Positions 1 through 42,366 of a DNA stretch of 64,000 nucleotides are shown here, piece by piece; the first letter of the stretch is position 1, and each line of letters begins with the position of its first letter. A model generated the notes under the pieces. That model saw only the letters and a program-made list of their open reading frames with translations. It ran no database searches and had not been told where the DNA came from. The stretch comes from Patescibacteria group bacterium (GTDB taxonomy: Bacteria; Patescibacteriota; Gracilibacteria; BD1-5; UBA6164), in assembly GCA_036172015.1 (NCBI GenBank), contig JAVHSE010000023.1, positions 42,266 through 106,265 on the forward strand, written 5' to 3'. Both the position numbers and the translations under genes were made by a program.

Positions 1-674
1 ACATATATTTGAGAAACCAGATTTTGTATATGAAGAATATCTTCTTTATGTAATATTTTTTCGATATCTTGTTGCTCTTTTGAAGTGATTTTTTTATACA
101 TTTCTATTTCATCTTCTTTTTTTGGATAGGTTACTTGTGTTTTGAGTAAAAATCTATCAAGTTGTGCTTCTGGAAGTTTATAAGTTCCTGATTGTTCTAC
201 TGGGTTTTGAGTTGCTAAAACAATAAATGGTTCATCAAGTTGGTAGCTTTTATTTCCAATCGTTACTTGTTTTTCAGCCATAGCTTCCAAAAGAGCTGAT
301 TGTACTTTACTTGGAGCTCTATTAATTTCATCAGCAAGGATAAAATTATTAAAAACAGGTCAAAATTTAATGCTAAATTCTCCAGTTTTTGTGTTAAATA
401 TCTCCGTTCCAATCAGATCACTTGGTAATAAATCTGGAGTAAATTGAATTCTGTTACATCATAAATCAAGAGTTTTTGAAAGGCTATCAATCGTTAATGT
501 TTTGGCTAATCATGGAACTCATTCAAGGAGTATGTGTCATTTCGTTAAGAGTCCTATAATGAGACTTTTTATTAAATTATCTTGTCCAACTACTTTTTTG
601 TGGACTTCCGTAATTACTTTTTGAATTTGCTCTTGAGCGGAAATTACTTCATTTTGTAAAATTTCTTGTGTCAT
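1..674 (-). CDS. MoxR-like AAA+ ATPase (N-terminal part; gene continues past window start)
   Basis: ATG at 674. Code-25 translation [10 protein letters not shown]...[30 protein letters not shown]...[21 protein letters not shown]. All three Gly of GHILLEGVPGLAKT are TGA codons (537-539, 519-521, 510-512). Confidence 0.85.
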
Positions 675-699
675 ATATGTATAATTATAAATTAAATAT

Positions 700-1581
700 T
701 TAAATGCGTTGTAATAATTCAATTATTCGTGAATTATTCGTTATGAGATGAGAATATTTCAGTTTCTGTAAAAGTTCTATGAGTTCTTTTATTTCATCTC
801 TTGTCTCAATATCTCGAATCAATGATACTATTTCAGAATAATTTTTTGCTTTTAAGTTTATATTATATTTGAGTGATATTTTTTCTCGAAATATTTCATC
901 CACTTTGAAAGCAAAATTTTCATCCGTTCATTCTGGGTAGGCATATTCTTGTTTTTGATCAATATATATTTTTTCTTCTTGTTGTTCGTTTGGTTCTTGT
1001 TTTTGTGTTGTTTTGAGTGAGAAATAAACGATAAGAGTTAAGATACTTATAACTCCTAAAAGTAAAAATAGTTGAGAATTATTTTTTTGTTCTATTGTAT
1101 CTAATTCTCCTTTATTTATTTTCTTTGGTGGGTTTTGTAATGGATTATTTTGAGTTCCTATATTATTTTTTGATTGATTTCAATTAAGAAATATTTTTTC
1201 TCCAGTAATATCTATTTTTACGATATTACTTTCAAATTTTTCTTTTCCATCAGTCATTATTATTGGTCCTATTTCATAGCTTCCTTTTTTTTTCGGTATT
1301 AATGTAAAATTGATACTGAGAGTGGAAGTAATTTCACCGTTTATACTCGAAAAATTACTCGATTGCGATTTTGAAACGATATCAAAATTTTCTATTCATT
1401 TGATTTCATTAATTTGTATACTTCATCAATTTTTTGAATCAATAGTGAGTTTGAGATTCACTCTATCATCTACTGTTGCTTTATTCGTATCTATTTGAAG
1501 ATTGGTATTAAAAGCAAAACCAGTACAAAAAAAGATGAAAAGAGAAAAAAGAAAAAGTATTTTTATTATTTTTTTCTTCAT
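700..1581 (-). CDS. Secreted/membrane-anchored protein, BatD-like, upstream of moxR
   Basis: ATG 1581, TAA 700-702, 293 aa with 4 in-frame TGA. N-terminal signal MKKKIIKILFLFSLFIFFCTGFA and an internal TM LFLLLGVISILTLIVYF. BatD-like call rests on architecture and moxR linkage only. Confidence 0.55.
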
Positions 1582-1629
1582 ATTTTTCAGTTAAATATTA
1601 AAAAGATGAGTGTATTATAAGACTCATCT

Positions 1630-1805
1630 GTTAAGAAACCGTTAAGATTTTGTTTATTTTTTGTAAAGATAATAAGCATACATACTTGGAAATATTTATA
1701 TTTCTGCTCTACTTTTTATTACTATAAAATTTTGAAAATTAGTTAGTTACATTATTCTTTTTTCTATTACAATATCTATGAGTTAATTGAGCATTTTCTA
1801 TATTA
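1630..1805. repeat. 176-bp direct repeat, copy 1 (identical to 2929-3104)
   Basis: Base-by-base comparison shows identity over 176 bp at an offset of 1299 bp. Contains a duplicate of the last 22 codons plus stop of the DUF262-HNH gene. Confidence 0.9.
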
Positions 1806-1952
1806 ATTTATTAATATTTTGATTAAATTATTTTAATTCTTATACTTATATAACATAAATTATTTGAATACTATTAGTAAAAAATATATAAATCAATTTA
1901 TAAATAATGATTTATATTGTTAAAATATAATTTAATAGTAACATTATATATA

Positions 1953-2786
1953 ATGATCCTCACTTCCTCAAAATTTCTTAAATTTCAAACTAATACTTCT
2001 TTATGAACTGACAAAGATAGGCATTTAGCGATATTAAAATATTTCAATGATAATAATATTATATTCACCCAATATAATTTAAGCTACGATATAACAGAAA
2101 TATTATATACCTTATGATTTTTACATTTAGATGAATATATTACTCAGTCAAGAAAGTCTGACTTATTTTCTCCAGCAATCGAATATTTGTGACTAATTAA
2201 TAAATGAATTGATTTGTTAGAAAGTACTAATTTTTGTTTTTGTATTTGATATCCCGCATGACATCATGCAGAAAAGACATGGTCAGCTGGGAAATGATTT
2301 TGCGTATTCTCAAATGCTTCATTTGCAGCATTAAAAATGAAGCAAATCTATGGTAATGTGTTAATAATAGATTTCGATTTACATCAATGAAATGGAACTA
2401 AAGATATAATAAAAGATGAAAAAAATATTTTCTTATTTTCTTGTCATAACAGTAATCTATATCCATTATATTGAGAAAATTATGATACTTCATTAATAAA
2501 TTATATGGGCTATAACATAAATAATCCTAATTTTGAAAATTGAATTATTGAATCCATATGAAAAATTTGTCATACTTTTAATTCCGATTGTATAATTCTT
2601 TCAGCTTGATTTGATAGTCATATAAATGATCCCATGAGATGATGAAAATTTACAAATGAAAGTTATATAAATCTGTGAAAACTTATTAAAAAATTAAATT
2701 TACCAACTCTAGCTATTCTTGAAGGATGATATAATTTAGAAATTATTTGACGCTTAATATTTGAATTTAATAGTTTATTTGATTAA
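1953..2786 (+). CDS. Histone deacetylase/AcuC/acetylpolyamine amidohydrolase family protein (short N-terminus)
   Basis: 277 aa in code 25. Motifs GYPAGHHAEK, IIDFDLHQGNGT, LSAGFDSHINDP and LEGGYN supply the His-His pair, the Asp/His metal ligands and the catalytic Tyr of the HDAC fold. Confidence 0.8.
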
Positions 2787-2928
2787 TAATATTATATATA
2801 ACTGACTTATTTATATGAAAATCTTAGCAATTGCAGATAAAAAATAAATAATCTATTTATATCCTTTGTTAAAACCATACATATCTATGATTTTAGCTTT
2901 TGTATATTGTATTGAATTATTATTTTCA

Positions 2929-3104
2929 GTTAAGAAACCGTTAAGATTTTGTTTATTTTTTGTAAAGATAATAAGCATACATACTTGGAAATATTTATAT
3001 TTCTGCTCTACTTTTTATTACTATAAAATTTTGAAAATTAGTTAGTTACATTATTCTTTTTTCTATTACAATATCTATGAGTTAATTGAGCATTTTCTAT
3101 ATTA
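2929..3104. repeat. 176-bp direct repeat, copy 2 (overlaps the true 3' end of the DUF262-HNH gene)
   Basis: Identical to 1630-1805. Positions 3038-3104 are the last 22 codons plus stop of CDS 3038-4435. Confidence 0.9.
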
Positions 3105-4435
3105 GTTTTTCATCATCTTGAAAATGGTATAATATGATCTACTTCTGCATCATCAATTGATATTATTTGTTGTTTACATATTTTACAAGTTTTATCTAAT
3201 TCAAATAATGATTTTTTTATATTATATGGGTATATTCTGTTTTCTTCTTTAGGATTTCATATAATTTCTTCTAATTTTTCAAACCAAATTTTAAATCTTT
3301 TTTGAAGTTGTTCTTTATTACTTGTTTGATTTAATATACAATCAATAAACTTTTGATTATTAGACATTAATTTTATAAATTCTTCTTTAATAACATCTGT
3401 ATTTTGAATTATTTGATTTTTTGTATATTTCGCAAAGCAACACATTTGAATGTCATAAATTGCCATATTTATTCTTGTTAATGCCCAGTATCAATTTGTA
3501 TTTTCATTATCTCATGGTATATATCTTCTAAAAGCATTTTCTCAAAATACACTATATACTAATTCAGTGGTATTTTTAAATATTTCTTTATATTCTTTTA
3601 TTTTTTCATCAGAAAGGTTTCTAAATTCTCTTAAATGTTTATTAGAAAATTGTTTTATACTTGGTTTATAATTTAAATATGATTTTTCATATAAGGCAAA
3701 AAATCTTAAAATCATTCATCTATAAATCATTCTATTCTTATAATTATCTTTTCTTACAAGTTTATTAAAGATTTCACTATTTTCTAAATCTGCTAATAAA
3801 TCCATATATTTTCATCTATAAACAGTATTTCTTATTTCATCCTCATTTAGTTTAATAGATCACGTGTTTAATCTTTCAAATATTTCAAATTTTATATCCT
3901 CATTAGATTCTTTTTTTATAATTATTGTATGAAGAGTCGTTGTTTTTATTTTATTTTGATCTTCCTTTTCTAATTGAGAAAAAGTTTTTCAATTTAATTC
4001 TTTTAATATATTCAATCAAATTAATTTAAAAGGTTTATTAGTTCAGGAAATTTTTTCTTCAATAAATGTTAAAAATGATGTTAATCTTTGTTGTCAATCA
4101 ATAACACTATATTTTCAATCTTTTTCTTCATTTAAATATATAACTGGAAGAGGAACATTCATTAAAATTGATTCAATTAATCTACTTGATTGTTTTTGAT
4201 TCATAACAAAATTTCTTTGATAATCAGGTTGTAATACCAAATCTCAATCTTGTTTCATAGATAAAAATTCTCTAATTGTTATATCTTTAGGTTGCCAAAT
4301 AATATTTCTATTATTTCATTCAATTTCTATAAATTCATTATCTTTTTCAACTTCTTCATCATAATTTTCTTCTTCTATTTCATTTTGAACCTTATTTTTT
4401 AATTTTTTTTCATCTAATATTGCATCACTATTCAT
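3038..4435 (-). CDS. DUF262 (GmrSD/ParB-like NTPase) protein with C-terminal HNH endonuclease; type IV restriction-like
   Basis: 465 aa. N-terminal LQPDYQRNFVM...IDGQQRLTS. C-terminal HNH DHIIPFSRGGKTNIENAQLTHRYCNRKK, in which GG is TGA-TGA at 3110-3115. Confidence 0.8.
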
Positions 4436-4530
4436 AAATTTAAATTAATAATTAAATTCCAAAAATATTATATATTTTTTCAAATTTTAGCTCGTTTAGT
4501 ATATAAATATTAACAATTTTTGCAAAAAAT

Positions 4531-4548
4531 AAAAGCCATTTGGCTTTT
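4531..4548 (-). terminator. Hairpin aaaagcca-tt-tggctttt followed by a T-tract on the minus strand
   Basis: Perfect 8-bp stem overlapping the toxin stop codon, with T-run downstream in the transcription direction. Confidence 0.5.
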
Positions 4549-4864
4549 ATAACTCATCCAGAATTTTTTCTAATGCGAAAATAATCTCTTTTTCATTTAC
4601 ATTTTCTTTTATAGTTTTTGAATAAATAAGAATTGGGAGTATATTATCTCAAAACTTTTTTACAATTATTCTAAATCCTCATCTTTTTCCAGTCGGAATA
4701 GAAGAATTTTTTAATCTATATTTCAAAATATTATTTCATAAATCAGAAAATGGTTCTATAATTAAATTATTTTCGAAAAATAAAATATCTTCATGTATAT
4801 TTTTATATTTTTTTGATAATTCTAAAACTTGAGAATTAAAAAATGTTGTTTTTATAAATTTCAT
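4547..4864 (-). CDS. RelE/HigB(Gp49)-type toxin
   Basis: 105 aa, MKFIKTTFFNSQ...PTGKRGGFRIIVKKF.... The G-K-x-G-G-[FY]-R-[IV]-I motif is typical of this toxin family. Start overlaps the upstream small ORF. Confidence 0.65.
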
Positions 4865-5085
4865 AATTTTTCTTCAAGTTTATTATTAAGATTTGCAAAA
4901 TAGGCATTCTGAGAAAGTTTATTTTTTGTTTCTAAATCTTGTTTTTTCTCAATATAATCAAAAACTGTTTCTGTAATCACTGCTTGAAAAATATTATCGT
5001 CACTTAAATATTTATAATCTTTTTCAAGTATATTAATACTAATCGTAGTCATATTTTTAAAATTAAATTTTAAATTCATTTTCAT
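4852..5085 (-). CDS. Putative antitoxin (small ORF overlapping the toxin start)
   Basis: 77 aa from ATG 5085 (alternative ATG 5052). TISINILEKDYKYL may be an RHH-like strand-helix. Role inferred from position only. In code 25 it reads through TGA 4861-4863 to TAA 4852-4854. Confidence 0.45.
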
Positions 5086-5187
5086 TATTCATTATAAACT
5101 TTTTTCAAATTTTGCAAAAAAATAAGATATAAATAAGAAATCTTTTTAGACTTCTTATTTATACAAACAAAATATTCCTTTTATTTC

Positions 5188-5277
5188 AAAAACACAATTT
5201 CAAATTCCTTTCGTAATCACTCTTGCGAAACTATATGAATTTTCCAACCAAACATATCAGTAATCTTTTTTACTATT
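5188..5277 (-). pseudogene. Orphan fragment of a histidine-kinase 3' end (about 88% identical to 9844-9933)
   Basis: Translates IVKKITDMFGWKIHIVSQEGLRKEFEIVFLK*, versus the intact HK end ...IVKKITDMFGWKINIVSQEGVGTEFEIIFLR*. No upstream coding continuation. Confidence 0.75.
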
Positions 5278-5333
5278 TTTATTATATATGTCTAAAAAAT
5301 ATAAGACATGGTAACCCCTTATAAGAGTTTTTC

Positions 5334-6518
5334 CTAACTTCTTAATGCATCTACCGGATCCATTTTACTCGCTTTATAGGCTGGATAATATCAAAAAAAT
5401 ACTCAAACAAATACAGCAAAACTAAATGCTCCAATTCTTCCAAAAATACTTGGTAACACTTCAATGATATCAAAATAAGTAATAAGAGGAATAATAATAT
5501 CTCCTAAAATAATTCATAAAACTCCTCCAGAAATACTTAAAATAATAGATTCAAATAAAAACATATTTAATATATCATTTCTTTTAATTCCAATAGATTT
5601 TAAAATTCATATTTCTTTTGTTCTTTCAGCGACTCCAGCAAACATAACATTCATAATTCAAATACCAGATACTACTAAGACTATTATAGCCACTCCTGTT
5701 AATAACAAAGTCATAGTATGAGCAGCATCTTGAGCTGCTGTTACTTTTGATCATTGATCAACAACTCTAAAATCATCACTATCAATAGATCTTAATTTAT
5801 GTTCTTGTCTCAAAATTTCTCATATCTGAGTAATTGCTGGAGAAATACTTTCTATATCTTTTGCTAAAGCTATTAGTCTCGGACTTCCACTGTCTCAAAT
5901 AATAGATTGACTCATAGGATATGATATAAATATAGAATCATCATAAGTTATTGGTCATATAGCTGTTCCTGATTTTTTAAAAACTCCTATAATTTCTACT
6001 TTCTTTTTTCAAATATTTATCGTTTGCCCGAGAGCGAGTTCGGGACTTCAAAAGAAATCAATGGCAGCTCCATTTCAGAGTATGGCTCATTTTGTCTTAT
6101 TTTCGAGTTCAAGGTCACTGAAATAATTTCCATATTCTATATTGAGTTTTGAAATAGTTAAAAATTCTCCCATGATTCATAAAATAGTAGTTGAGAGTGT
6201 ATTTTGATTACTTTGAGTTAATAATTTTCATTGTAAAATAGCAGTTACCGATGAAATATAGGTACCATTATTTTTTATAGTTACAACATCTTCTTCATTT
6301 AATTGTGATTTTTGTGTTCCAGATGAAACTGGATTTATGAGTATAGAAGTCACGGCTAGATTGGCATACTGATCTTCTATTGATTTTTGAGCTCCAAGTC
6401 ATATCGCAATTACGAGTACTATCGTAGAAACTCATATAATAATACCTAAAGAACTTAAAAAACTTCTGAGTTTATTATTATAAAGAGATTTAATAGCCAT
6501 TTTTAATATTTCTCACAT
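5334..6518 (-). CDS. ABC transporter permease, MacB/FtsX type
   Basis: 394 aa. N-terminus ..AIKSLYNNKLRSFLSSLGIIIGVSTIV, C-terminus GYYPAYKASKMDPVDALRS*. Alternative start at 6500. Confidence 0.8.
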
Positions 6519-6521
6519 AGA

Positions 6522-7226
6522 TTAATTTGTTAACTTATAATCACAATTTTCAACTTTTCAGTCTTTCAAAAAGATGATTCTATCAGCATATTTTGCTACA
6601 AAAGGAGTATGAGTTACCATGATAATAGTTTTTCATTCTTGTTTTAATTCTGTAATGAGATTCATCACTTCTTCAGTTGTTTGACTATCAAGGGCTCCAG
6701 TAGGTTCATCTGCTAAAAGTACTTCTGGATTATTCATTAAACTTCTTGCAATAGATACTCTTTGTTGTTGTCATCCTGATAATTCTCAAGGTTTACTTGC
6801 ATATTTGGTTCAAAGTCATACCCTTTCTAGAAGGCTTTTTGCTTTTTGTATTTTTTCTTTTTGAGGGCTATCAAGGTATATTCCAGGAAGAATAACATTT
6901 TCTAATGCAGTAAGTTTTGGTATCAGATGAAATTGTTGAAAAATAAATCACATTTTTTTATTTCTAATGTATGAAAGCATTTCGTCATCTTTTAAATGTG
7001 AAATATCTTCATTTTCAAAAAAATATTTTCCATCTGAAAGAGAATGTAAACATCAAATAATATTTAATAATGTTGATTTTCCACTTCCACTTTCTCACAT
7101 AAGCACAACAAATTCTCAAGAATTTATTTCTAGATTAATTCATTTCAAAACTGGTACTTCTACTCCGTTCGTTAAAAAATATGACTTTTTTACCTCTTCA
7201 AACTTTACTATTATTTTTTCGTCCAT
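6522..7226 (-). CDS. ABC transporter ATP-binding protein (MacB/LolD-like)
   Basis: 234 aa. Walker [13 protein letters not shown], signature [13 protein letters not shown], Walker [12 protein letters not shown]. Confidence 0.9.
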
Positions 7227-7236
7227 AATGTATTTT

Positions 7237-9231
7237 TTAATAAGTTATCTTATCTCCAAGTTTTAATCAACTCATGACTTCGACCATCTTTCCATCAGTA
7301 AATCAGGTAATTATTTGTTTATATGTTCCATTTTCCATCATAACAGAAGGTTTTTTATTAATATTTTTTACTCATGGAACTGGAATAATAAGAATATTTT
7401 TTACTTGTTTTGTTATAAATTGGATAGTAGTGGTCATAGAGTCCTTTACTCTCGTATCAGATACTTCAAAGAGTATTTTTACTTCATAACTTACAATTCC
7501 ATTACTATCAATATTTGCTTTATCATTTATATATATAACCATTCCTGTGAGAGTCAGTCATTCTATAGAATCAAATGTTAAATATACCTCTTGTTTATCT
7601 TTTATTTTCATAATATCTCATTCTTCTACAAAAGATTCAACATACATAGTAGAAGTATTTATAACAGTAGCAAAGGCTCATTTCAAATTATTAGTTTGAT
7701 CTCATACTCTCCCAGTGATATCAACTATTTTTCCAGAAATAGGACTATATAATTTTGCATCTTCTTTTTTTTGATTTGCTTCTTCTAGGTTCTTTTTTGT
7801 CGTAGCTATAGCAATAATAAAAGGATCTAAATCAAGTATATCAACTTGAGATTTACTTTCTAAAAGAGTTTTTGAAATATCAACTTGTGAGTTTTCTTTT
7901 GAAAGTAATGATTCATTTTTTAGTTTTGTATTTTCTATTTGTATATTTACTTGATCTAACTTTTGTTGCGCTCAAGAAAGTAAAATATCATTTTCTAAAA
8001 GGATTTTTTGATAATTTGCTTCGGCTATTTTTAATTTTTGCTGTGTAGATACTACTTGATTTTTTGAGGCATCAATTTTTACATCGGCACTTGTTTTTAT
8101 TTCAGCTGCAGTTTGGATGAAACTGCTAAAATTAGCCAGACTCGTTTTACTGTCAGATAATACTTTTTCAAAATTTGAAATATAATTATCAATCGTGATT
8201 TGAGATAAACTTTGGGAAGTAATAGAATTTTTTAACACATCAAGAGTGGAATGAAGAGTTCTATTTACTCAACTTCAGATTTCTTTGAGTTGATTCATAT
8301 ATTCATCTCATTTTGACAAATCTGGACTTTGTCTATATATTTTCCAATCAGAATAAAAACTATCAAATCCTTGTTTTGTTTCTCTATAATTATTTTCTGC
8401 AATATTTTTTAATGAACTATTTTTTGCTCAAAGATATATTTCAAAAGTATCATTGTGATATTTATTGGAATCACTTATTCATAAAAGCATATCGATATCA
8501 AATAAATTTTTCTCAATTATACTTATTATTTGCCCAACTTCCATAAGTAATTTATTTTGAGCATTGGTATATTTTTCTTCTTCTTGAGAAATAGTATAAT
8601 TTGCATTATCTTGAGCTATTTGTAGGTCTATTTTTGAGGTATCAATATTATTTTGAGCATTGAGAAGACTCAGTTCTATTTGTTTTTGTATATTATCTAG
8701 ATTATCTTTTGCTATTTGTTTATTATCAAGAGCTGTTTGAAGATCAATTTCAGTTTGTGATTGTACACTCTGTAAAGAAATGATATTCGCCTCTAATTGC
8801 TTTGATTGAATATCTATTTCATTTTGAGTTCATCATCTGTTTTTAATTTCATAGTTTGATTGTGCTGTTTTGAGTGATAGTTTTGCTTTTTCTATATTTA
8901 TATTGAGATATGTATCATCAAGTTCAGCTATAAGTTCTCATTTTTCTACTCTATCTCACTCTGTTTTATATATATTTTTAATAATTCATATATTTTGAAA
9001 ATCTAAGCTAAATTCATCTTTGAGACTCACTTTCCCATCAGATTCTATATATACTTTTAAATCATCTTTTTTTACGGTAAATTTTTTTGTTTCATTTGTG
9101 TTTATGATTTCTTTTGGTATAAAAACATAATTATAACCAAAATACGAAATTCAAACGAAAAGGAAAAGAAAAAATATTTTTTTAAATATTGATTTTCTTT
9201 TATCTGATTTTATTTCATCTACTAATGCCAT
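7237..9231 (-). CDS. HlyD/MacA-type membrane-fusion (periplasmic adaptor) protein with long coiled coil
   Basis: 664 aa. N-terminal TM FFLFLFVGISYFGYNYVF, repetitive coiled-coil middle, C-terminus ..GKMVEVMSGLKLGDKITY*. Confidence 0.7.
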
Positions 9232-9241
9232 ATATAAAAGA

Positions 9242-9730
9242 TTATTGAGTAAAAGATATTTTTACAAATTCAGCTACTTTTTGTTCCTTTATTTCAACAT
9301 TAAGCCAAACTGAAATATATTGTCATACCTTAAAATCAGCAATACTCGCTTCTGTATTTGGTGCATCTGGTCAAGAAGCTGTTTTCTTAAGTATTTCAAT
9401 TCCAACGGGTACTATTAATTTTATTTCTCATAAAGTAGCTTTATTAATTTCTTCTTTTAAAGCCATTCTGGCAGATTCATCCATAGATTGCATATATTTC
9501 TTTTTTTCTGTAGGAGTCATATTAAAAGTTGGATCTTTTGAAATATCAACTGGTAATAATGTAATTTCATTTCATTCCATAGAAACTATTTTTCAATAAA
9601 CATCGACTTTTCTTTCTGGTTGTAGAGATTCTTGTGGAGTGTTAGAAACTTCAGGAGATAGAGTTGTTTCTTTTGAACAACTTGCGAGTATCAGAAATAA
9701 TACTGATATCAATAATATATATGTTTTCAT
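9242..9730 (-). CDS. Lipoprotein, first gene of the efflux cassette
   Basis: 162 aa. MKTYILLISVLFLILASCSKE is a signal peptide plus lipobox Cys. Confidence 0.65.
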
Positions 9731-9836
9731 AATTATATGGTAAGTATATAAAAGTAACTTACAAATAATATGTATGGAGTTTAAACTAAGTTTAAATTTT
9801 CTCTAAAAAATTCAATTTTAATAGTGCATTCAGATT

Positions 9837-11117
9837 TTATCTTAAAAATATAATTTCAAATTCCGTTCCTACTCACTCTTGAGAAACAATATTTATTTTC
9901 CAACCAAACATATCCGTAATCTTTTTTACTATTGATAATCCTAATCAAGAACCACTTTCAGAGTACAGAACTGACTGGTCATGTCTATAAAATCTTTCAA
10001 ATATTTTTTTCAAATTTTCTTCTTTTATTCCAATACCTCTATCAATTATTTTTATAGATTTCGCTCAAATTATCACTTGTATTTCGTTATTTCCATTATT
10101 ATAAAAAATCGCATTCATAATAATATTATCAAACAGTCTATCGATATAATACACATTGCTTTCAATGACTAAATCATTTTGAGAGAGAATATTTATTTTT
10201 ATGTTTTTTTTCGAAGCAATCGTCTCATATTCGACTCATTTATGAGTAAAATATTGAGTAAAATGTATGATTTCCTTTTGTGTATTTATTTCTTCTCCCC
10301 TGAGTAAAAATGAAAGATTTGAAATAATATTATTTATATTTGTAACAGCTGAACGAATATTTTTTAATTTTAATAAAATTTTTTCATCGGTAATTTTGTT
10401 TTCTAAAATTTCAATACTCGAATCAATTTGCATCAATGGAGTTTTTAATTCATGACTCACATCTTGAATAAAATCTTTTTGTGAATGAAATATATCTTTT
10501 ATTTTTACAATAAAACTATTCGTAGAGTCAATATATTTTCAAATTTCAGAATCTCAATATTCATTTTGGATTCATTTTGAATCTCGGTAAATATCATAAT
10601 CTTTTATAAAATTTGATATATTTCAAATAGGTTTTAATAAATTGATAGTAAGAAAATAAGTAATTAAAAAAATAACTCCTACAAGAAATACATCCAGAAG
10701 AAGAACTAATTCAATAAATTGATTTTGTATTTTTAACAGATCTTCAATATTTTTCCCAATAATTATATTATAACCTTTATAATCTCATCTAAAAATAATA
10801 TTTTTATTATCATAATAGTGAATTCAAATTTTATATTTGAGTTGCAATGTTTCATCATTATTTCAAAGAGAAAAGAAAAATCATAAAGAATGTATATGTT
10901 TCATTTCATATTCTCATAAAACAAAAATATTTTCTTTTTGTATATCTATAAAATGAGTAATTGTTTGATATTCATTCTCAATATTTTTAATAATCGTATC
11001 TCTAAATTTCTGAGTGATTCCAATATATAAAAAATACGAAAAAATATTGACTACAAAAATAATGAATAAAAAAAATGTTATAAATATACGATTTTGTATT
11101 CAAAGTTTAGTTTTCAT
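9837..11117 (-). CDS. Sensor histidine kinase
   Basis: 426 aa. TM segments near the N-terminus, H-box MSHELKTPL, C-terminal ATPase end ..ITDMFGWKINIVSQEGVGTEFEIIF. Start overlaps the response-regulator stop by 11 nt. Confidence 0.85.
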
Positions 11118-11787
11118 TGGTTTCAAATTTAAATCATATTCATCTGACGGTTTTTATATAATCAGCTTGATTTCATATATTTATTTTGCTACGAATAGAA
11201 TTAATATGAGTTCGCACTACATCTGACCAAATATCATTATTTATTCCCCAAATATATTCTACCAATTCTGATTTTTTTATGACTTTATTTTTATGTATCA
11301 TGAGATATTCGAGTATTTGAAACTCTTTTGGTGTTAATAAAATATTCCTTCCATTTCTATTGACTTCTTTCAAATCTTGATTTAAAACAATATCGGCACA
11401 CTCAATTATATTCAAATTATTACTCTTATGTACTCTTCTTAAAATACTTCTCACTCTCAAAATAAGCTCTTTCAAACTAAATGGCTTTGTTATATAATCA
11501 TCAGCTCAGAAAGTAAATCATTTTTCTTTTGTTTCTAAATCTTCTTTTGCTGTGAGGAGTATTATAGGAGTATTTATTTTATGGAGTTTTATTTCTTTCA
11601 GTATTTCTATTCCATTGATATATGGAAGCATAATATCAAAAATAAAAATATCATATTGATTTTTGAGAGCTTCTTTTAATCCTGATTGCCCATCACTTTT
11701 TAAAGTAACGATAAAATTATTCTCACTTAAAAATTCTCTTATATTTTCTCAAATAATTTTATCATCTTCGATAAGAAGTATTTTCAT
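11107..11787 (-). CDS. OmpR-family response regulator
   Basis: 226 aa. MKILLIEDD, FDIMLPYINGIE, DDYITKPF. The wHTH end ..DYIKTVRGIGFKFETNEN is reached only by reading TGA 11173-11175 as Gly. Confidence 0.9.
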
Positions 11788-11855: not shown

Positions 11856-13139
11856 TTATTGTGATAGCTTTCAAATTTTAGATTGAATTTCTGACCAAAT
11901 ACATACCGATTGATATTCAAAAATTTTTTGTTCTAATTTTTCTATTTCCATAGAAATACGGTGAAAAAAATCCGCCCCTTGTAAAACATCAAATTCTTTT
12001 GAGATTCTATAAAAAAATTTTTTTGTTTCTTCTATTTTTCTGTATGCTTTTTTAATATTTTCGGTTGTAAAATGAGAATATACTTCGGTAGTTTGCAAAT
12101 TGTCTATTCTATCCCAAAATTTTACTTCAAGTGCATCTAAAACGATACTTTTTATAGTAGATACTTCTATAATAATTTTATTTTGTTCAATAACATCTCT
12201 GGTATGATTATAAAAATTATTCATACAAGGAGTATCTCTAAAATGATCTATGTAATAAATAAAATGAGTTGCTGGAAGCATATGAGAAAAATATTCATAA
12301 TTTCTCATATTTCTATATTTTAAATTTAATTCTTCATACCACTCTTCAAAAAATTTTTCTTCTACAGTAATTTGTTCTGGATTAAAATTTTTTTTATTAA
12401 TAAATCTATCATTGAGTAATCACTTTCGATTGAGTATACCTGACGATTGTATATATTTTAATTTTTCCCAATCTGATAAAGACTGTACCCATTTTCTTTC
12501 ACATTCTATTTCTGATTTTTTTAGTAAGTGTCGTTTATTGTATTTTTTTTCTAAATATTCATGAGTAGGATATCGATCGTCATCTTTTCTTAAAAATCAT
12601 ACTTCTTTCAATTCGTCTAAAATATATACCTCAGGTAATATTTTATCTCAATTTTTTTGATCTTGTGTAGTTAATTCAGTAAAAGGTCGTTTGCTAATAA
12701 TCGCAACTCAAAGAGCAATTTTTATATTTAAAGTAGTTTCTAAAGTATGTAAATCATAATCAGTATCTTCAATACTATCATGATGAAGTGCTATGAGTAA
12801 TTTTCTTAAAGATGGTTTTTTTGATTCAATAAGTACATTATAAGCAACTCTTAAAAGGTGATCAAAATACCTTCCTCCATTATTTCTATTAATATTTTGA
12901 AATTTATGTTTTACAGAAGCATAGGTATGATTGAGTGCTTGAAGTTTTTTTTCTGCATATTCTTGGGTAATTTTTCATGATTGGACATCTTGTTGATATA
13001 ATATTTTATATGCTGTATTCCATAATATTTCAATAGATCTTTCAGGTGACCAATTTACAGCATCATTAAAATGAACAAATTCCTTATTAAGAACTCGTTT
13101 TCCATTTTCTCATGATTGACTTAAAGTAGGAATAATCAT
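11856..13139 (-). CDS. HD-domain protein, RelA/SpoT-type hydrolase-like N-terminus plus unassigned C-terminal half
   Basis: 427 aa. HLLRVAYNVL...LLIALHHDSIEDTD carries the His...His-Asp...Asp pattern of SpoT-type HD hydrolases. The C-terminal ~250 aa have no motif I recognise. Confidence 0.6.
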
Positions 13140-16650: not shown

Positions 16651-16702
16651 ATTTTTAAATTTAGAACATATATTTATTATTTTTTCCAGCCTCCTGGAAA
16701 AA

Positions 16703-16726
16703 CTTACTTACTTACTTACTTACTTA
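16703..16726. repeat. Tetranucleotide SSR (CTTA)6, i.e. (TAAG)6 on the coding strand
   Basis: Six perfect tandem units spanning the stop codon of the methyltransferase gene. Followed by hairpin tttttccag-cctc-ctggaaaaa at 16681-16702. Confidence 0.95.
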
Positions 16727-18743
16727 AAAAACGAAACATTTCATCTCAATCATGTAACTTTTTCTCTCAAAAATCAATAAAAGCATCTGCTATATCAAGT
16801 AAATCTGTTTTATAAATCAAATCTCATTTTTTGTATGGAAAATTATTTTCAGGGGCTAATATATCTCAACCATTTTCATCTTTCAAAAATATATAATTTC
16901 AAGAATTATCTTTTGCAGGAACTTTATTTACTCACATAAATATCTCATAATCATCCTGAATATATTTTTGTCTTTGTTCTTCTGATTCCCATTTTTTTAA
17001 AAAGAAAATAGATGTTTTTGTTCAAGTGTGAGGTTTAAAACTATTTCCGTGTAATCAAACTACTCATAAGATACGAGCTTTATCTAAAATAAATTGTCTT
17101 ATATATTTATCATTGGTATTATTAAAAACTCATTGTGGAAGTATGATTGCTGTTCTTCATCCTGGTTTCAACATATCTAAAATTCTTTGAATAAACAAAA
17201 TATGTCTATCAACTGATTTTCCATCTGCTTTATCTCAAAGTAAATCTCTATATTGTGCTATTAACTCTTTTTCCCCGATATCTCAAGCAAAAGGAGGATT
17301 TGAAAGAATAATATCAAAATTTAGCTTCTTATTTTGTTCTCATAAAATAAGTTTTTCATCATTTAATCAAACGAAAGCTTTATCTGACCATTTCTTATAA
17401 TCAAGAGTGTTTTCATTAAAAATATGAGTTTTTCAATCTCCAGCAATAAGCATAATAGCTTTTGATATCTTTGCTGATTTTTTATCAAAATCTATTCCAT
17501 ACAGATATTTTCAAGCATAATGACTTTTTTGTCTATAGGTAGTTAATTTGTATTTTTCCCAAACATATTGCATATTATGAACCAAAAAACCTGCACTTCA
17601 ACAAGATGGATCTAAAACATATTCTTCATGAGTAGGATTAAGTATTTTCACACAAGTATCAATTATAATTCTTGGTGTAAAATATTGTCATTTTTTTGAT
17701 TTTGATGCTTCAGGAATAAGGTATTCAAAAGCTTCATCAATAATTCTTAAATTGTTTCAAAAAAGTTTTACTTTTTCAAGCTTTGGTATACAAATATCAA
17801 GATGTTCTGGTTTTAATTCAATTTTTTCTTGTGTATCAAAAATATCTTTCCATTCTTTTTTTGATCTTTCAAACAGACTATTTATTTCTTTATGTGTAAC
17901 TTCTGCACTGACATAACTTTTAAATTTTAACTCTCAATTTCAAGCATTTTCAGCTTCAAATTCATCATAAAGTTTCGCATAAATAAGTTTAAATATTTCA
18001 TTAAAACTATCTTCTCAAGAGTTTGCTAAAACAAGTTCTTCTAAATCTTCAATAATCGTTTTTAAATTAAAATTTTGAGTCTCATTATGTTCTACTAAAT
18101 CATTGTATTTCCATTTTCTTGATAATATAATATCTCTTATTCATTTTGTTGGCTCTGCTAAAGTTTTTACTTGCTGAAATTCACTATATTTTGGAATATC
18201 TGGCATTACTTCAAAATTTTTTGGATATGGTCTTAAGAAAACATTTATGTCTCTCCCATTTATTCAAACTCAAATTGGAGAACCTTCAGCATTGAGATAA
18301 CTTTTTAATTGTTGTATATTGTTTCTTTGATTTGACTCTTTTACTTCAACTATTATCCAAGGAGTAGTAAGTTCTGAACTCTGATAAACAACTATATCAG
18401 CTCTTTTTTTCTCGTGTCCGAAATTTACTCATACCTCACATTTAATACATTCTTTTGGGTATCAATATTCTTCAACAAGTTTTATTAAATATAATTGTCT
18501 CACAATTTCTTCTGGCTGAGATTTATTTTTACTTTCAGTTAAAATTTGTTTTTTTCATCATTCACTATCATAAGAATTTATAAACCAACTATCACCTTCA
18601 TTACTTAATGATAGTTTATTATTAAATATATCAAGTAAATCTTTTCCCTCATCTATGTAAGATTTAAAAAGAATAAGATTTGTTTCATATCAAGGAACTA
18701 TTTTATTTAATAATTCTTTTATTTTTTCAATTGAATAAGCCAT
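16716..18743 (-). CDS. N6-adenine DNA methyltransferase (HsdM-like) with N-terminal PD-(D/E)xK/HsdR_N-like domain
   Basis: 675 aa. N-terminal RADIVVY...PWIIVEVKES. MTase motifs GQYFTPR, LDPSCGSAGFL and SNPPFAG. Confidence 0.85.
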
Positions 18744-41679: not shown

Positions 41680-42366
41680 ATGACAAATATGAAAATTACG
41701 GATCAACTTTCCGTTTGATGGAAAAAAAAATTCAAACCAGAATTTGAAAAAGATTATTTTTTAGAAATAAAAAAGCAAATAGTATCTGACATCAATCTTT
41801 GAGAAACTATTTATCCACCACTAGAAAAAATTTTTTTTGCTTTTGAAAAAACTTCATTTGATGATCTGAAAGTAGTCATTTTATGACAAGATCCATATCA
41901 TGGAAATGGACAAGCTCATGGTCTCAGTTTCTCTGTACCAGATTGAATTATCCCACCACCAAGTTTAAAAAATATTTATAAAGAACTTCGTAATGATTTG
42001 GGTTTTGATATACCAAATTGATGAAATTTAGAGAAATGGACGAGTCAATGAATTTTACTCCTCAATGCTATACTTACCGTAAAAGCTTGAATTCCAGCCA
42101 GTCATTCTCACATAGGTTGGGAAACTTTTACCGATGAAATCATAAAATATATTTCAGATGAAAAAGAAAATATTATTTTTATACTTTGGGGAAATTTTGC
42201 AAAAAGTAAAAAACAATTTATTGATGAAAAAAAACATTTTATTATAAAATCAGCTCATCCATCTCCATTTTCAGCTTACAACTGATTTTTTGGAAGTAAA
42301 CCTTTTTCAAAGACAAATGAGATATTAAAAAGTATTTGAAAAAAAGAAATTGATTGGAAATTATAA
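41680..42366 (+). CDS. ung: Uracil-DNA glycosylase (family 1)
   Basis: 228 aa. [21 protein letters not shown] (the G before QDPYH is TGA), LLLNAILTV and AHPSPFSA. Confidence 0.9.

Follow-up and report, generated by a model that had tools for sequence, protein, structure and literature searches.

The question raised by this locus is how a single HDAC-family gene came to lie between two perfect copies of a sequence that includes the 3′ end of a neighboring nuclease gene. The locus is part of a 64,000-nucleotide stretch of DNA (hereafter, the window; positions 42,266 to 106,265 of contig JAVHSE010000023.1) from a Patescibacteria genome of 1.10 Mb in 87 contigs (assembly GCA_036172015.1). Coordinates are window positions unless another contig is named. 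The repeat, which we call R, is present as R1 (1630–1805) and R2 (2929–3104), with the HDAC gene between them. For the reasons given below, we think that the structure is a real, chromosomally integrated and fairly recent insertion with long target duplication, located at a hot spot between a histidine kinase (HK) gene and a batD-like gene in a strain of Gracilibacteria that uses genetic code 25. We put the probability of this reading at about 0.72.

A repeat search and direct reading of the letters both gave 176 identical positions out of 176 between 1630–1805 and 2929–3104, which bears out the identity reported in a preliminary description of this DNA. The first mismatch on the right falls immediately at 1806/3105, and the bases to the left of the two copies (1629 and 2928) differ as well. 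BLAST found only these two copies in the genome (E = 3.6e-88 for each), values that exclude chance, and the copies are separated by 1,123 bp. Exact matches to a 32- to 37-mer of R were not found in genome or metagenome public contig collections. R2 contains the end of a gene for a nuclease with DUF262 and HNH domains (3038–4435, minus strand). The preliminary description had assigned to R2 the last 22 codons plus stop of this gene; what R2 holds is the stop codon and the 64 nt beside it (3038–3104), of which the 64 nt amount to 21 full codons and one base. The distances that it gave were correct: R2 reaches 109 nt beyond the nuclease stop codon (2929–3037), and 48 nt separate R1 from the start of batD (1581), which lies downstream of it. 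Those 109 nt had also been taken as sequence downstream of the nuclease gene throughout, and here the extent holds but the attribution does not, because the distal 44 nt (1630–1673 in R1) are native batD upstream DNA. R is chimeric, being composed of 67 nt of nuclease 3′ end (1739–1805 in R1, where it is an orphan), 65 nt of the tail of an island that carries a toxin-antitoxin (TA) pair and the nuclease gene (1674–1738, minus strand), and the 44 nt of native batD leader (1630–1673, minus strand), the second copy of which is the orphan left part of R2 (2929–2972).

The three parts of R were assigned by comparison with contigs from Logan, a set of k=31 assemblies of sequencing runs. A search of these assemblies with the BatD protein led to four informative contigs, L030 and L031 from a conspecific strain (L030 from Logan SRR25490530) and L032 and L033 from relatives with the ancestral layout described below; two other Gracilibacteria assemblies, L028 and L029, carry homologues of the nuclease. 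Native homology enters R by 35–44 nt, extending to 1664 in L030/L031, to 1669 in L032 and to 1673 in L033. The 44-nt segment is present once in each of L030–L033 and twice here, and the nuclease 3′ end is likewise single in L028/L029. The island tail (1674–1738) has no match either in the ancestral-site relatives or downstream of the nuclease homologues in L028/L029. The nuclease gene itself is 87–89% identical in nucleotide sequence to its counterparts in L028/L029, with the identity confined to the coding sequence and the homology ending approximately 10 nt before the stop codon. That the homology stops so near the end of the gene indicates that R spans an older junction. R1 is continuous with the native batD upstream region on its left and R2 with the nuclease gene on its right, whereas the other side of each copy is foreign DNA. 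Because each copy retains its original context on one side only, we conclude that a once-single R was duplicated around the 1,123-bp insert, and because R spans the junction between island and leader, the HDAC gene must have arrived after the nuclease island.

The history of the site can be read from the same relatives. In L032 and L033, which are 88–92% identical to the window in nucleotide sequence in both flanks, a response regulator gene and a gene for a 426-residue HK are followed directly by batD-moxR-DUF58-VWA. The left flank aligns to 11998–9836 of the window, where the response regulator (11107–11787, minus strand) and HK (9837–11117, minus strand) genes are found, and the right flank aligns to 1669/1673–1. 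The BatD orthologues that lie directly downstream of the HK gene in these contigs are 74–77% identical in amino acid sequence to the protein encoded here, and the gap between the HK stop codon and the conserved leader is only 25–34 nt. These alignments show that the ancestral layout was HK, 25–34 nt, the conserved batD leader and batD. Given the adjacency of HK and batD in the relatives, approximately 8.2 kb (1674–9835) is DNA that accreted at one intergenic site, and it consists of an efflux cassette, the TA pair with the DUF262-HNH nuclease gene, and the HDAC gene. The conspecific strain is 99.0% identical over 1,664 nt, but its leader matches only as far as 1664 and the sequence beyond is unrelated. 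The site is therefore polymorphic within the species. In L030, the DNA upstream of window position 1664 (L030:1–223) is AT-rich, and an approximately 35-nt sequence at the end of the contig also ends two contigs of the present genome (C40:14134–14188 and C86:24332–24382), which suggests that a multicopy, unassembled element occupies the hot spot in that strain. The preliminary description had pointed to related genomes in which the nuclease gene would be followed directly by batD-moxR. The comparison yielded the ancestral HK-batD adjacency and no instance of nuclease gene, single R and batD. The species-level comparison set of 40 related genomes, nine congeneric species among them, is too distant to reveal an empty site; the closest genome (G003) has only batD-moxR in common with this locus.

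The DNA between the repeats consists of an upstream flank (1806–1952, plus strand; 8% G+C, with promoter-like hexamers, and unique in the genome), the HDAC gene (1953–2786, plus strand) and a downstream flank (2787–2928, plus strand). Reading the region in code 25, in which TGA specifies Gly, brings out long genes, whereas table 11 gives only short open frames, and NCBI labels close homologues of the nuclease Candidatus Gracilibacteria. We placed the HDAC start at the ATG at 1953 because the resulting extent matches that of the homologues. The 277-residue product is a compact, class-IIb-like member of PF00850 (137.8 bits against a cut-off of 27.9, with only profile positions 90–290 of 298 aligned), and its N-terminal third is short and divergent. 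The best matches of solved structure are the catalytic domains of HDAC6 and HDAC10 and acetylpolyamine amidohydrolase (APAH), for which E values ranged from 4e-40 to 1e-18. The protein is approximately 35–60 residues shorter than these enzymes at the N-terminus and retains their His-His pair, Asp-His-Asp zinc ligands and catalytic Tyr. The catalytic residues had been described as intact, and so they are: H104, H105, D142, H144 and D221 (D142, H144 and D221 being the zinc ligands) and Y260, the catalytic Tyr, align with the HDAC6 motifs GHHA, DxDxH, SAGFD and EGGY, and TGA encodes the Gly of the motif YPAGHHAE, among other conserved glycines. The enzyme probably acts as a Zn-dependent deacylase. 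Its closest homologues, with which it forms a small clade of 276- to 281-residue proteins, are 36–46% identical and are encoded mostly on TGA-recoded contigs. As 17 of the 22 Gly codons of the gene are TGA, the donor was probably another organism with TGA=Gly. The two closest homologues with genomic context are on contigs L026 and L027. In L026 (802–2656) the HDAC gene adjoins a gene for a DUF1016/YhcG PD-(D/E)XK nuclease, and in L027 (236–2132) it lies near an NT5C deoxyribonucleotidase gene; two cases are too few for an association.

When was the HDAC gene acquired? The gene is absent from 39 of the 40 related genomes, including all nine congeners, and from the contig of the conspecific strain, and is present in two of the 41 genomes of the order; the identical cassette contig recurs in 16 runs. 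The preliminary description had taken the 100% identity of the repeats to imply a recent event. This holds loosely, given the strain-specific presence of the HDAC gene; by itself, however, the finding of 0 differences in 176 positions dates the event weakly, since approximately 1.8 differences would be expected at the 1% divergence of the conspecific strains. The absence of repeat differences together with the strain-specific cassette makes the insertion recent in a loose sense and supports a date at about the time when the two conspecific strains diverged, or afterward. One could envision instead an old and stable arrangement, the copies of which have been kept identical by gene conversion, to which repeats 1.3 kb apart are open, or by selection on a regulatory element in R, for which the 44-nt native part, conserved in relatives, would be a candidate. 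Such an explanation would have to account for the lack of any relative with an HDAC gene at this site, for the difference at the hot spot in a conspecific strain of 99% identity, and for the perfect conservation of an orphan nuclease fragment that has no conceivable coding role. Moreover, an older repeat of the HK gene at the same hot spot (see below) has diverged to 87.6% identity. We regard an old arrangement as extremely improbable.

The next issue is whether the structure is real or was created in assembly. In the Logan assemblies, consulted here by exact protein look-up, the HDAC gene is on a contig of 1,183 bp (L034) that corresponds to 1776–2958 at 100% identity and was recovered in 16 runs. 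All 1,123 bp of the unique insert are on this contig, which extends exactly 30 nt into R in both directions. The identical BatD is encoded on nine contigs, each from a different run, and every one of them starts at 1659, 30 nt into R1. On the other side, two contigs that contain the toxin gene, L044 (99.99% identity over 9,790 nt) and L048 (100%, 8 runs), stop at 3075, which is 30 nt inside R2; these span the response regulator, HK, efflux cassette, orphan HK fragment, TA pair and nuclease genes. For the complete nuclease protein (translated with TGA=W), the exact look-up in Logan contigs gave no match because the contigs break inside R and truncate the gene. Breaks that are k−1 = 30 nt inside R at all four edges indicate that two paths enter R and two leave it in each graph, and since this is true of the graphs of many runs, all four junctions are real and present in the reads. 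The results support a structure that is not an artefact of one assembler. A separate possibility is that the junctions are real but their linkage is not, the chromosome having a single R while the HDAC gene resides on a 1,299-bp circle, or in a co-occurring strain, and was threaded in by the assembler. R, at 176 bp, exceeds the usual assembly k-mers, and in a de Bruijn graph the integrated form is equal to a circle plus an empty site. We consider this very unlikely, however, in view of the presence of all four junctions in many runs and of an identical cassette contig beside the same strain in 16 of them. In addition, a 1.3-kb circle that lacks a replication gene should not persist, any circle with just these junctions would itself have come from an integrated R-X-R parent, and 176 bp is atypical as a k-mer overlap length.

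If the insertion is real, by what means did it occur? A Pfam scan of all genes in 1–9231 showed no transposase, integrase or resolvase in the island; of the two tyrosine recombinases encoded in the genome, one is on contig C54 and the other is approximately 60 kb away. No tRNA, tmRNA or Rfam family was found in the first 10–12 kb, and the ends of the cassette bear no terminal inverted repeat of note. A site-specific integrative element was rejected on the grounds that no recombinase is nearby, no tRNA or Rfam element is present, and the junctions differ between strains (1664 versus approximately 1673). Microhomology at the two novel junctions is limited to TTT at one and TC at the other and is uninformative at 20% G+C. 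RecA and ComEC are encoded in the genome.

The comparisons show the following sequence of events. The island of TA and DUF262-HNH genes was joined to the batD leader at approximately 1673/1674, thereby creating a single R. A 1,123-bp segment made up of the HDAC gene and its own flanks now lies between two identical copies of R. The HDAC DNA probably entered through the competence machinery, as the presence of ComEC and RecA suggests, and a recombination or repair event may have fixed the insert while copying 176 bp of target on both sides. Candidates for this step are the filling-in of a break with long overhangs, a template switch during replication, and additive RecA-mediated integration of a circularized fragment that carried R. 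We lean slightly toward a one-step duplicative repair or replication event on imported DNA, and we cannot rank the candidates with confidence. The nuclease gene keeps its last 21 codons, stop codon and 3′ region, and batD keeps the 224 nt previously upstream of it, including the conserved hairpin described below. The duplication would leave the nuclease gene intact despite an insertion in its last 22 codons, and through the two perfect repeats RecA should be able to remove or amplify the cassette.

The preliminary description attributed the repeats to Campbell-type integration of a circular element or to a duplication-insertion event. The duplication of a once-single R around the HDAC cassette agrees with our findings. 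In the Campbell-type scenario, one reversible RecA crossover took place between the chromosomal R and the R of a circle that also contained the HDAC gene. In its favor, a single crossover would give exactly this product topology, the two repeats match at 100%, RecA is present, and 176 bp is sufficient homology for it. The chimeric nature of R is the main obstacle. As R spans a lineage-specific junction, a foreign circle that carried it by chance is excluded; the circle must stem from a sibling chromosome in which the HDAC gene was already beside R, and hence the crossover is not the primary event and fails to explain how HDAC and R first came together. Furthermore, the 1,299-bp unit carries no replication or recombination gene, transforming DNA enters cells as linear single strands, and in these data the circle junction is indistinguishable from the integrated junctions. 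For these reasons we think the Campbell-type scenario unlikely, although it deserves to be taken seriously, and such a crossover could have spread or restored the structure once it existed.

Several points weigh against our own proposal of an integrated insertion with long target duplication. The assembler of the metagenome-assembled genome and the argument from circle persistence are the basis on which the four junctions are linked, and the integrated form, a circle with an empty site, and a tandem array are alternatives. The supporting runs apparently belong to one series (SRR254905xx) and are not independent populations. No genome was found with the exact empty site, that is, the nuclease gene, a single R and batD. 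Lastly, the published cargo of such insertions consists of restriction-modification genes, for which a role of their own DNA cleavage has been proposed, whereas here the cargo is an HDAC-family gene with a match to PF00850 only. We treat the restriction-modification cargo as a property of the published screen rather than a defining feature of the class.

A second scar is found at the same hot spot. The efflux cassette (5334–9730), which is absent from the ancestral site in L032/L033, encodes a MacB permease (5334–6518), an ABC ATPase (6522–7226), an HlyD-like protein (7237–9231) and a 162-residue protein (9242–9730), all on the minus strand. It lies between the true HK 3′ end (9836–9933, minus strand) and an orphan copy of that end (5180–5277, minus strand; 93–94% identical to the L032/L033 orthologues). 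The topology is like that of R: the true end of the gene is followed by a 4.6-kb cassette that lacks mobility genes and then by the orphan end, in this case of 98 nt. The target is single in L032/L033. We conclude that 5180–5277 marks an earlier insertion of the same topology. The two HK-end copies are 87.6% identical to one another and each is 92–94% identical to the outgroup orthologues. Being closer to the outgroups than to each other, they are not recent copies of one another; either the duplication is old or one copy came in with the donor DNA.

At the other boundary of the hot spot is the operon in which batD (700–1581, minus strand; Pfam BatD, 2.5e-16) is the first gene, followed by moxR (3–722, minus strand; AAA_3 ATPase, 4.4e-63), which is cut by the window edge. 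The native order batD-moxR-DUF58-VWA is seen in L030, L032 and L035. The batD leader, composed of the 44 nt plus a hairpin and T-run (1599–1673), is far better conserved in L030–L033 than the DNA just upstream, and all insertion junctions (1664 and approximately 1673) are at its distal edge. The leader is probably the promoter or 5′ region of the operon and the boundary of the hot spot. The hairpin, predicted by folding and conserved in L030–L033 (1599–1629, minus strand; AGATGAGT-N10-ACTCATCT followed by the T-run), carries TATAAT in the loop; it directly adjoins R1 on the left and has no counterpart after R2. It lies just outside R1 and was the sole feature to stand out when R was examined for promoters and terminators. 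For R itself a terminator or promoter role was rejected, as consensus scans did no better than on shuffled sequence and fold z-scores were approximately 0.

On the other side of the HDAC cassette, the nuclease (Pfam DUF262, 1.1e-29; HNH, 5.7e-13) matched the PADLOC model NsnA at 6.8e-92 and also PD-T4-2_A. It shares the N-terminal DUF262 (ParB-like) domain with type IV restriction enzymes of the GmrSD/BrxU type. GmrSD-type enzymes have a C-terminal DUF1524, however, and the nuclease has an HNH domain in its place. Menshen (NsnABC) is a three-gene operon with the ABC ATPase NsnB and the effector NsnC (PMC12065111), whereas only the NsnA-like protein is present here, with no adjacent NsnB or NsnC and with a RelE-like pair and the HDAC gene as neighbors. 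From its domains and surroundings, the nuclease is best described as a putative stand-alone, type IV-restriction-like enzyme. Its family is approximately 60–67% identical to proteins from standard-code phyla. TGA accounts for all 16 of its Gly codons, compared with 17 of 22 in the HDAC gene and 36–63% in neighboring core and efflux genes; by this count the gene is fully recoded at glycine and would not be expressible in a standard-code host or phage. Upstream of it are a RelE-like toxin gene (4547–4864, minus strand; Pfam RelE, 1.1e-5 and 26 bits, just below the 27-bit cut-off) and a gene for a 77-residue partner (4852–5085, minus strand); neither product had a PADLOC match.

The preliminary description had called this an unusual neighborhood for an HDAC-family gene, an impression that serial accretion at the HK/batD hot spot accounts for. 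A functional HDAC-nuclease pair was considered and rejected: the two genes, which are convergent, came in by separate acquisitions; in L028/L029 the homologues of the nuclease sit among methyltransferases and other nucleases with no HDAC neighbor; and the HDAC protein has no PADLOC match. That the two genes are adjacent is due to the hot spot rather than to a common function.

A self-comparison of the genome showed other local direct repeats, and one mechanism for all of them was rejected, since only the HK 3′-end duplication has the topology of R. Upstream of the window, adjacent genes for secreted proteins of 243 and 741 residues (C23:9409–12431) have a 221-nt 3′ end in common at 94% identity that encodes the same C-terminal domain of approximately 70 residues; the pattern stems either from a shared domain together with gene conversion or from an in-frame insertion accompanied by duplication. 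On contig C27, 76-bp direct repeats of 93% identity (12214–12288 and 16686–16761, the second at the contig end), each with a terminator-like hairpin, flank genes for a RhuM-like protein, an HNH protein and a 731-residue protein beside the rpsM-rpsK-rpsD-rpoA cluster. This cassette may be another insertion with target duplication; the C27 pair, like a pair on C2, consists of short hairpin-containing intergenic repeats.

The significance of the locus, as we see it, is that it offers a clean and datable case in which a bacterium of the candidate phyla radiation (CPR) with a reassigned stop codon gained accessory genes with no recognizable mobile-element machinery, and that three acquisitions at a single intergenic hot spot can be put in order with the help of related contigs. 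There is also a practical use in annotation: where the orphan 3′ end of a gene lies beside accessory genes in genomes of this kind, it can be taken as an insertion scar, once the template and variable repeats of diversity-generating retroelements have been set apart. A bolder idea is that long target duplication serves naturally competent, integrase-poor ultra-small bacteria as a general means of gaining and losing genes, whatever the cargo. We would not expect this to hold; if it did, the two stacked events at HK/batD would be snapshots of a RecA cycle of pop-in, amplification and pop-out, and the HDAC unit would be currently mobile. In a weaker variant, the clade of the 277-residue HDAC may be an accessory, conflict-related family of TGA-recoded bacteria, members of which lie beside nuclease genes (DUF262-HNH here and DUF1016/YhcG in L026).

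How does the structure compare with known arrangements in which a gene end is repeated nearby? In diversity-generating retroelements, as here, the 3′ end of a gene is repeated approximately 1–2 kb away as a non-coding copy. A complete element of this kind in the same genome (C1:170–3950) served as a control. Its target is a gene for a 493-residue pilin-like protein (N_methyl motif) with the variable region at the 3′ end (1658–1777), accompanied by a bAvd-like gene of 239 residues, a reverse transcriptase of 346 residues (RVT_1, 2.9e-23; YMDD) and the template repeat (3821–3942), and 10 of its 12 mismatches are at template adenines. Upstream of both the target gene and the accessory gene is a copy of a 79-nt GC-rich element that bears a palindrome (173–251 and 1915–1992). 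The control demonstrates that a nearby repeat of a gene 3′ end is not in itself the signature of an insertion. R was nevertheless rejected as part of such an element: the copies have 0 mismatches and no adenine-specific changes, no reverse transcriptase or Avd gene is nearby, and R runs 109 nt past the stop codon into the leader of the neighboring gene. Islands and prophages that integrate at attachment (att) sites in gene 3′ ends are similar in that the repeats include the end of a gene, the gene is left intact and the displaced copy is at the far end. Here, in contrast, there is no integrase or excisionase and no tRNA, the repeat is far longer than an attachment core, and the insert contains one gene of 277 codons.

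The closest comparison is with insertions with long target duplication, a type of event that Nobusato et al. reportedly also treated in 2000. The R structure has repeats longer than 30 bp (identical at 176 of 176 positions), no transposase, integrase or inverted repeats, and a repeat that is not multicopy, and in all of these respects it is the same as that class. The published units are a few kb long, lack mobility genes and are flanked by direct repeats of 46–423 bp; the repeat is single at the uninterrupted site, unique in the genome and sometimes or often placed over the 3′ end of a neighboring gene (Furuta, Abe and Kobayashi 2010, Nucleic Acids Res, PMC2853133). Most of the described examples come from naturally competent bacteria, and the mechanism is not known, although a role for DNA breakage has been proposed (PMC2853133). 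The present case differs from them in its host, a code-25 CPR bacterium, and in its target, which spans an older insertion junction. The cargo, which is not a restriction system, extends the class and weakens the proposal, made in print, that such insertions are driven by DNA cleavage by the cargo itself. We conclude that the locus belongs to a known, mechanistically unexplained class of insertion, here with an unusual host lineage and a non-restriction cargo.

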